A DNA stretch of 24,512 nt from a virus: UHGV virus genome UHGV-0105321; one strand, written 5' to 3'. Under the pieces are notes generated by a model. That model made no database searches. It was not told where the DNA came from and saw nothing but the letters and a program-made list of their open reading frames with translations. This document shows, piece by piece, positions 4,254 through 4,703 of this stretch (the first letter of the stretch is position 1; each line of letters opens with the position of its first letter). The position numbers were made by a program, and so were the translations under genes.

Positions 4254-4493
4254 CAAGGGCTACACACAGCAATGTTGTTATTCACAACCGGAAGCGCACG
4301 GTCGAAGAAATCTAACGACAAGCCTTCAATGGGAAAGAGTCTTCGCCGTGCACTTTCGTGTTGTACCCTGGCTTTCAGGGGAATGTCTGTTCAGTAAACT
4401 GAGAGTGCCGGAACTCACCCGTGTCCGGCGCACGATCTCCACCTCACCCGTGGAGAACTCCTCAACTACAAACCCCGTAAGGAGAGTGAATTT

Positions 4494-4703
4494 ATGACAC
4501 AAGAAGAAAAAGTGATGTTTCTGATGCGGCTGGCTGTCGATACCTACAACACACAATTCAGGGAGAAAGATATACCTCAAAAGGCAGTTCCTGCCGCGGT
4601 AGATAAGGGCGGTGCTATTGCCGTATTTTACGATGTATTTGAATCATTTTTTGATGAAAAACTCGACGCTGTTAGCGACTTCGGAACATCGAGTAATAAA
4701 TAA
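4494..4703 (+). CDS. Hypothetical small protein, 69 aa, oriented against the surrounding leftward operon
   Basis: Strong ribosome-binding site AAGGAGAG 7 nt upstream of the ATG; preceded by a roughly 200-nt structured leader; 3' end converges with the minus-strand gene 4672..5031. Confidence 0.45.
   Translation: MTQEEKVMFLMRLAVDTYNTQFREKDIPQKAVPAAVDKGGAIAVFYDVFESFFDEKLDAVSDFGTSSNK

Follow-up and report, generated by a model that had tools for sequence, protein, structure and literature searches.

The early-left operon of the viral genome UHGV-0105321 leaves a gap of about 620 nt without a gene on its own, minus, strand, and the locus raises the question of what this gap is used for and on which strand. 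The window analysed here is a stretch of 24,512 nt representing the early region of a lambdoid, Stx-phage-like prophage. The region under study (4296-4703) falls in the gap of this pL-type operon, and a first-pass annotation had described it as a structured leader, carrying a repeated loop motif, of a small gene for a 69-amino-acid (aa) protein on the plus strand. Our reading, held with about even confidence, is that both strands are used in this region, which is part of a conserved non-coding spacer found in lambdoid early-left operons. On the minus strand the whole region is, by homology, included in the pL-type transcript and corresponds to the long untranslated stretch that precedes dicF in the K-12 dicBF operon. 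On the plus strand a promoter in the spacer (-10 TAAACT, 4395-4400) would start an mRNA at about 4407 with an 87-nt leader, in which a first hairpin at the extreme 5' end probably stabilises the mRNA, and a second hairpin would be followed by a CUCCU sequence that masks the Shine-Dalgarno (SD) sequence AGGAG and damps translation of the 69-aa gene. This gene would be moron-like, active as long as pL is shut off and countered by converging transcription from pL once induction has occurred.

A common prophage spacer

A distant BLAST search with positions 4246-4500 as the query found matches in 4394 of 5426 complete Escherichia coli genomes, i.e. in about four fifths of them and usually in several copies each; in about 1000 the match spans 80% or more of the query, with an identity of about 80%. 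The conserved block corresponds to positions 4283-4491 and is about 80% identical to its counterpart in E. coli genomes; positions 4050-4750 are 100% identical to Escherichia phage PhiR5_2 and 96% identical to phiSTEC1589-Stx1c. In strain K-12 the counterpart of positions 4283-4474 lies in the Qin prophage between ydfC and dicF (MG1655 1649062-1649256, about 80% identity), where no feature is annotated. This stretch is transcribed as a long untranslated region of the dicBF operon, which contains dicF (PMC5069750), and the small RNA (sRNA) DicF is released from the operon transcript by rho-independent termination and RNase E, or by RNase III (PMC5069750, PMC9438474). A literature search found no published function for the stretch itself. 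The region belongs to a very common type of prophage spacer, known as a sequence and without an assigned function. Homology to the K-12 dicBF operon implies that each firing of the early-left operon transcribes it on the minus strand, and the overlap with the opposing pL transcript, from which a possible antisense interaction had been suggested at first, is certain by the same homology (PMC5069750).

An alignment of 13 loci, K-12 Qin among them, revealed a common layout: the leader of the division inhibitor, an sRNA slot in which the terminator is conserved and the seed varies, an intervening segment of about 125 nt, and the conserved block. The intervening segment, which separates DicF from the block in Qin-type prophages (e.g. 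L006 1376-1500), is missing in the window and in two other loci (L002 and L255), so that here the seed of the sRNA lies directly against the long hairpin. A pattern scan of IMG/VR, in which the pattern fixed the 5' arm of the first short hairpin, yielded 117 usable block copies comprising 71-77 unique sequences. In all 117 the block is located upstream of a DicF-type sRNA and dicB or kil, and its invariant portion spans 4283-4434. The fold of the whole region beats shuffled sequences on both strands (z = -3.0 on the plus strand, 4290-4493, and z = -4.1 for a 296-nt fold of the minus strand). A search of Rfam, at the gathering scores and at E<=10, returned no family for the hairpins: the plus-strand matches were chance ones inside the open reading frame (ORF), and the minus strand gave only sub-threshold matches to DicF, RprA and STnc100, outside or at the edge of the region.

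The 69-aa gene and its candidate promoter and leader

The features relevant to the plus strand are:

4366-4380, seen in folds of both strands: small hairpin CCCUG-GCUUU-CAGGG, with the T-run of its loop overlapping the candidate -35
4372-4400, plus: candidate sigma-70 promoter, -35 CTTTCA (4372-4377), 17-nt spacer, -10 TAAACT (4395-4400)
4407-4429, plus: hairpin 1, GCCGGA (4407-4412) with TCCGGC (4424-4429), 11-nt loop ACUCACCCGUG, motif copy 1
4436-4456, plus: hairpin 2, UCUCCAC (4436-4442) with GUGGAGA (4450-4456), loop CUCACCC, motif copy 2
4458-4484, plus: predicted SD-sequestering stem, CUCCU (4458-4462) with AGGAG (4480-4484), present in the minimum free energy (MFE) and centroid structures
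4494-4703, plus: 69-aa gene, phrog_2605, RefSeq WP_047644941.1, two helices predicted

Judged from its pattern of variation, the 69-aa ORF is a genuine protein-coding gene under purifying selection. It matches phrog_2605 over its full length (E=7e-45), is annotated by PGAP in strain G1/2 and is preceded by the SD sequence AAGGAGAG at 4479-4486. Homologues of the protein, one of them in Edwardsiella phage EPP-1, share 39-59% identity and keep the length. The string MTQEEKVMFLMRLAV is invariant in the protein while its codons differ (synonymous-only variation), and the dN/dS ratio is about 0.03 for codons 1-16 and 0.36-0.45 for the gene as a whole. Neither the 69-aa protein nor the product of its 119-aa convergent partner has a match in Pfam, NCBIfam or PADLOC, and the AF2 model of the 69-aa protein has a pLDDT of 64. 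The elements that the first-pass annotation listed here, namely the two short hairpins, the repeat, the ribosome-binding site (RBS), the ORF and a convergent ORF ending at 4672, are all present.

The clear purifying selection on the 69-aa ORF means that transcription of the plus strand has to cover it. Upstream on this strand there is only the spacer, followed by genes on the other strand, and a scan with a position weight matrix (PWM) found no better plus-strand promoter upstream. In K-12 and four further loci (L002, L255, L007 and L012) the candidate reads TTTTCA-17-TAAACT and scores 9.5 bits, a value within the top 0.009% of window positions; the two closest relatives with the same ORF family have this score, and a pR-like control scored in the same range (9.2 bits). 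The candidate hexamers are exactly kept in 65 of 92 unique relatives, found with a search anchor that lay outside the promoter. The predicted start, at about 4407, is the first base of hairpin 1.

Both short hairpins are present in the MFE structures of 4290-4493 and 4407-4499 and in the centroid, and the 93-nt leader segment (4407-4499) folds with z = -2.6 on the plus strand versus only -0.8 on the minus strand. The CUCCU/AGGAG stem coincides with the RNAalifold consensus pair set, where one pair covaries (U-A in 13 sequences, A-U in 12), and the relatives of class iv carry a counterpart of this anti-SD/SD stem, CUCCAUU/AAUGGAG. Among 71 unique relatives the 3' arm of hairpin 1 is invariant and its arms show 0-0.10 bits of entropy against 0.39 in the loop, the conservation of the 5' arm being fixed by the search pattern. 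Lying between the best plus-strand promoter candidate and the SD sequence, the short hairpins are most likely to be read as a structured leader of the 69-aa gene, an assignment to which we give about an equal chance of being right or wrong. The leader proposed at first is thereby kept for the two short hairpins but not for the long one, which lies upstream of the promoter candidate. Conservation is higher in the stems than in the apical loops; covariation is weak, amounting to one pair in the leader.

The repeated loop motif had been taken to suggest a protein- or RNA-binding element or an sRNA. The 10-mer CTCACCCGTG occurs exactly twice on the plus strand (4414-4423 and 4443-4452), and it does occupy the loop of hairpin 1; in hairpin 2 its CUCACCC part forms the loop, but the GUG of copy 2 sits in the stem. 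On its own the repeat is within chance: with at most one mismatch, 3 matches were found versus 1.27 expected, and 12 of 100 shuffles reach 3. We estimate that 24.5 kb of sequence should contain about one direct repeat of a 10-mer with both copies within 50 nt. The weight of the motif comes from its conservation in relatives and not from its occurrence in the window. Hairpin 2 is present in classes i and ii, is destroyed by a mosaic junction in class iii and is replaced in class iv by another hairpin (GACCACACG..CGUGUUGGUC). Two IMG/VR relatives, L135 (at about 5750) and L195, have lost 29 nt, from one TCACCCGTG copy up to the next, and with them parts of both short hairpins.

One could suppose that the two CUCACCC loops are paired sites that bind a protein or an RNA, such as the GGGUGA next to the SD sequence, and form a dedicated riboregulator or a stand-alone plus-strand sRNA. 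The presence of the motif in the loop of both hairpins agrees with this, as do the class i relatives, in which the loop UCACCC is perfectly complementary to the GGGUGA between SD and AUG (-11 to -13 kcal/mol, shuffled-loop p of about 0.02), and the class iv relatives, in which a UUAUCC loop faces GGAUAA. In the window, however, the RBS reads GAGUGA, and the loop-to-RBS duplex of -6.2 kcal/mol is no better than shuffles (p of about 0.34); swapping loops between classes does not weaken the pairing in class iv. Hairpin 2 and motif copy 2 are missing from whole classes and from the deletion variants, no plus-strand terminator follows the hairpins, and Rfam gives no match. We regard such binding sites as very improbable. 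The loops were also considered as CsrA sites, which were set aside by inspection only, as they contain no GGA. We take the repeated CUCACCC(GUG) loop motif for inherited sequence to which nothing found here assigns a separate role.

In support of the promoter, in an unbiased scan with the anchor placed in the long hairpin, this hairpin was found to be followed in some relatives by a second, different module with other small ORFs. The second module has, as its best promoter candidate, a strong -10 of its own, TGGTATACT / TGGTATCCT (10-12.3 bits), at the same distance from the long hairpin; where a -10 of this type is lacking, TATAAT occurs further downstream. Distant homologues of the 69-aa gene sit behind this module. 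Its -10-like motif is linked to the SD region by an inverted repeat that shows covariation in 4-5 variants and may be either an RNA structure or an operator.

Several observations weigh against the plus-strand promoter and leader. In the window itself a 1-nt deletion (one T lost) weakens the -35, and the PWM score is 5.7 bits; a stricter consensus scanner with a threshold of 9/12 reported no plus-strand promoter, and the Cappable-seq supplement lists no coordinates near the predicted K-12 start (about 1,649,130, minus strand). The single covarying leader pair is effectively one evolutionary event, and the stems of hairpin 1 never vary and are thus uninformative on pairing and strand. The deletion relatives L135 and L195, which lack both short hairpins, still keep the ORF, the 77-aa ORF of L135 being intact. 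If the inverted repeat of the second module acts as RNA, the start site would lie further upstream than assumed. Finally, 62 of the 117 block copies, K-12 included, have no plus-strand ORF and yet keep the block and the promoter-like hexamers, so that the block must owe its existence to something besides the small gene.

Another explanation could be that only the minus strand matters: the block, together with the short hairpins, would act in the pL/dicB-type transcript as a structured 3' untranslated region that blocks exonucleases, guides RNase E or RNase III and delivers the DicF-position sRNA, the plus-strand hexamers would be incidental, and the small ORF would be expressed from elsewhere or barely at all. 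The constant position of the block upstream of a DicF-type sRNA and dicB or kil, its equal conservation in the copies without a plus-strand ORF, the RNAalifold energy of the whole block (-24.9 on the minus versus -16.8 on the plus strand) and the z of -4.1 for the 296-nt minus-strand fold all fit this explanation, and the minus strand is, by homology, the only one with published transcription (PMC5069750). Nevertheless, purifying selection on the ORF requires plus-strand transcription, for which the scan offered nothing better further upstream, the segment with the short hairpins shows no significant structure on the minus strand (z = -0.8), and distant homologues and swapped modules each bring a promoter-like element of their own. 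We consider a purely minus-strand role unlikely, if still a serious contender, and prefer the use of the spacer on both strands.

The long hairpin and the predicted sRNA beside it on the minus strand

The minus-strand use of the spacer would involve two features:

4283-4365, minus: long hairpin, about 24-26 pairs with bulges
4214-4282, minus: predicted sRNA core with a single-stranded seed (4260-4273), a terminator stem (4219/4220-4254) and a U-run (4214-4218)

The long hairpin, first reported at 4296-4351, is real and larger than described, the earlier coordinates covering its inner part. It folds with z = -5.5 on the plus and -5.2 on the minus strand and is the most conserved element of the block, with 0.18-0.36 bits of entropy in the arms versus 0.72 in the apex. 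Across 50 distinct sequences in the minus orientation, 93% of the cells are paired and three pairs show double-sided changes (a number reached by 16 of 500 shuffles); in the lower 21 pairs 98.8% of the cells stay paired despite an overall divergence of about 20%.

These figures bear on the possibility that the block is a recombination linker, conserved as a boundary for the exchange of mosaic modules or through recent spread, with hairpins and repeat as functionless passengers. Several mosaic junctions do fall within the block or on its borders (hairpin 2, the SD sequence, the stretch after the long hairpin, and the 125-nt segment, which may be present or absent), stems are invariant and covariation is scant, and the two 10-mer copies act as a deletion substrate. 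However, the substitutions are not random, the arms being conserved over apex and loop, pairing is kept in the lower stem, and the z values are about -5; we judge the linker improbable.

As to the strand on which the long hairpin acts, counting G-U against A-C pairs in the first set of 71 sequences indicated no clear strand. Single-sided changes of the G-U type in the lower 21 pairs were found at 9 sites (24 cells) on the minus and at 5 sites (5 cells) on the plus strand, a count that leaves out the column-3/83 pair, where U-G is the majority state. The substitutions thus lean modestly to minus-strand pairing, which is suggestive and not decisive; telling against it, the preference derives from few independent events, and the structure was itself taken from the minus-strand fold. 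The long hairpin is retained beside two different downstream promoter and leader modules. Since it lies upstream of the candidate promoter and is retained when that module is swapped, it is probably not part of the leader of the 69-aa gene. More likely, it belongs to the minus-strand early-left transcript, as a 5' stem or processing platform of the adjacent sRNA, where it would, most likely, mark or protect the 5' side of the sRNA during endonucleolytic processing.

On the minus strand, positions 4208-4366 fold into a succession of hairpin, seed and terminator (z = -5.35). Rfam places DicF (RF00039) at 4219-4268 with 29.5 bits (E=5e-4; gathering score 48) and RprA (RF00034) with 29.7 bits (E=0.5; gathering score 70), both short of their gathering scores. 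The position is that of DicF, between upstream small genes and the division inhibitor, and the terminator, GGCGG...CCGCCCUUUUU, is of the DicF type in an alignment with K-12 Qin and 11 other loci. The ftsZ-pairing 5' seed of DicF (UUUCUGGUGACG; UUUCUGGUGACGUUUGG) is absent, and AACAUUGCUGUGUGUAGCCCUU stands in its place. The seed at 4260-4273 is AUUGCUGUGUGUAG, a 14-nt identity to RprA within a match of about 30 of 36 nt to MG1655 rprA; beside the terminator it is invariant in the alignment with that gene. The same RprA-like version is also found in the kilR-sieB spacer of the K-12 Rac prophage (L003, about 2500-2600). Taken together, long hairpin, seed and terminator appear to form a DicF-position, Hfq-type sRNA with an RprA-like seed. 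A literature search found no paper on an RprA-seed sRNA at the DicF position, and the Tree 2014 supplement mentions none of dicF, dicB, kilR and ydfC.

At least six seeds share the DicF slot and a similar terminator (IMG/VR L135-L254, about 170-300 nt to the left of the block): canonical DicF, a form that combines the DicF seed with a different terminator, a short form with UUUCUGGUGAUUCGG, forms with GAUUACCUUUUGG and with GUUGGUUGGCACCGGGAAC, and the RprA-like form.

Directly downstream of the block lies a terminator, and kil, gam, bet and exo are expressed only if transcription passes it; the minus-strand hairpins of the block might therefore be imagined to mediate antitermination, in the manner of lambda nut boxB or the HK022 put sites, with read-through of the sRNA terminator into kil and the recombination genes. 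In relatives the stem of the small hairpin at 4366-4380 changes from C-G to U-A via U-G intermediates, though several sequences break it; on their minus strand the hairpin reads CCCUGAAAAG, resembling lambda boxB (GCCCUGAAAAAGGGC). Yet no boxA-like sequence is present and the stem and loop registers are unlike those of boxB (by inspection only), the site is about 1.4 kb downstream of N whereas put sites are near promoters, and Rfam gives no match; antitermination seems extremely improbable here.

The genes of the early-left operon around the gap, in the order of transcription, are:

5780-6163, minus: N, first in the operon
between N and the 119-aa gene, minus: two genes without an assigned function
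4672-5031, minus: 119-aa gene (phrog_2982), the convergent partner, whose 3' end overlaps the 69-aa gene by 32 nt
3816-4055, minus: kil, for a KilR-type FtsZ inhibitor, downstream of the gap
downstream of kil, minus: a 128-aa gene, a RecE-like exonuclease, gam and bet

The kil gene was confirmed as an FtsZ inhibitor, which is here of the KilR and not of the DicB type. A 237-aa early gene (5063-5776, minus) is truncated after residue 188 by a single G-to-A change at 5215 relative to PhiR5_2 (CAG to TAG). A weak STnc100-like match (28 bits) at 4023-4217 on the minus strand corresponds to the 5' leader of kil, and this division-inhibitor leader is conserved across the aligned loci. Two full STnc100 copies are located elsewhere in the window, at 17612-17805 and 18081-18289 on the plus strand (139 and 130 bits); a 2026 preprint links STnc100 to PasD sRNAs. 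The prophage sRNAs AgvB/AsxR and the Pas sRNAs were rejected as an identity for the elements of the spacer, as their place is the late region. Positions 13773-13971 (plus) hold isrK, a C4 antisense RNA and its a1/b1 target sites, that is, a P1/P7-type antirepressor immunity RNA module in a lambdoid prophage.

The small-gene slot and related systems

In 55 of the 117 block copies an SD sequence with ATG is found 99-105 nt after the motif, and these sites open at least 14 unrelated small ORFs of different PHROG families, or at least 18 if the second module is counted. The second module, as GCCTG..TTTTAACCAC..TCAGGC..GGTGGTATCCT, was seen upstream of plus-strand ORFs at L309, L326, L348, L263 and L304. 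A third type of leader (L314, L319, L347, L354 and L355) contains two direct copies of the CA-rich CCCCAAC(A/G)AC(A/G), and the small ORFs here, again different ones, are preceded by a TATAAT that is perfect or nearly so.

The 69-aa family always converges on and overlaps a minus-strand gene. The C-terminal part of about 35 aa of this partner (..ELEK.NIKPT..LR.VM.II..SL) is conserved behind very different N-terminal parts, and it accompanies the small ORF family in E. coli as well as in Edwardsiella-type phages; partner homologues were located at L260 2670-3275, L263 1661-2026 and L305 1657-2190. From these comparisons the 69-aa gene and its 119-aa partner look like a co-inherited pair. For the 69-aa gene no plus-strand terminator of its own was found, the only sites being weak ones at 4608-4622, inside the ORF, and 4874-4890.

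A more far-reaching proposal, which we consider rather unlikely, is that the spacer is a bidirectional 'expression socket', with a fixed promoter and leader behind the DicF-position sRNA and interchangeable small genes, in which convergent transcription gates leaky early-left read-through into the toxic module of sRNA and kil or dicB. Such gating would explain why block and promoter are kept without a small gene, as in K-12 Qin.

The first-pass annotation was partly right, and the finding is largely ordinary and of modest interest. It is nothing surprising in kind and extends what is known of morons, of sRNAs derived from 3' untranslated regions and of SD-masking leaders. Nonetheless, the spacer adjoins DicF and the division inhibitors DicB and Kil, whose control in the lysogen is poorly understood. 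If the promoter assignment is true, the long 'untranslated region' of a textbook operon gains a function, together with a hotspot of unstudied prophage small proteins that may serve exclusion, defence or the control of the host. Of more interest than the hairpins are two by-products, namely the RprA-like sRNA and the variable slot for small genes. The neighbouring sRNA suggests that seeds are swapped at the DicF locus, and a seed copied from RprA would let the phage reach RprA targets such as rpoS.

The leader may work like other 5'-terminal stem-loop stabilisers and SD-masking leaders, e.g. the ompA 5' untranslated region. The likeness lies in the hairpin at the predicted first nucleotides of the mRNA and in the short anti-SD/SD stem, and the analogy is purely structural.

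The predicted sRNA shares with DicF the genomic slot, a similar terminator and the same downstream sequence toward the division-inhibitor gene; DicF differs in carrying the ftsZ-pairing 5' seed, and the sRNA of the window scores below the DicF gathering score. With RprA it has in common the 14-nt seed just 5' of the terminator, about 30 of 36 nt and a 5' hairpin domain. RprA is, as far as known, made from its own Rcs-controlled promoter at a core-genome locus and has a different terminator, whereas the sRNA described here is encoded in a prophage and would be made from the operon transcript.

Phage morons, such as sieB of Rac, which occupies the same slot, and bor of lambda, resemble the 69-aa gene in being small accessory genes that oppose an operon and have a promoter-like element of their own, and in the highly variable gene content at a fixed site. 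Unlike them, the gene in the window has no clear terminator of its own, and its promoter and leader are a shared conserved module instead of a part of each insert.

There is also a close relation to the dicBF operon of K-12 Qin (ydfABC-dicF-dicB-ydfD), with which the spacer shares homologous sequence and the same position, after promoter-proximal small genes and before the sRNA and the inhibitor. In contrast to dicBF, the operon in the window is driven by N and pL, encodes a KilR-type inhibitor, has the DicF seed replaced and lacks the segment of about 125 nt, and its block is followed by a small gene on the plus strand, at the place taken in K-12 by ydfC.

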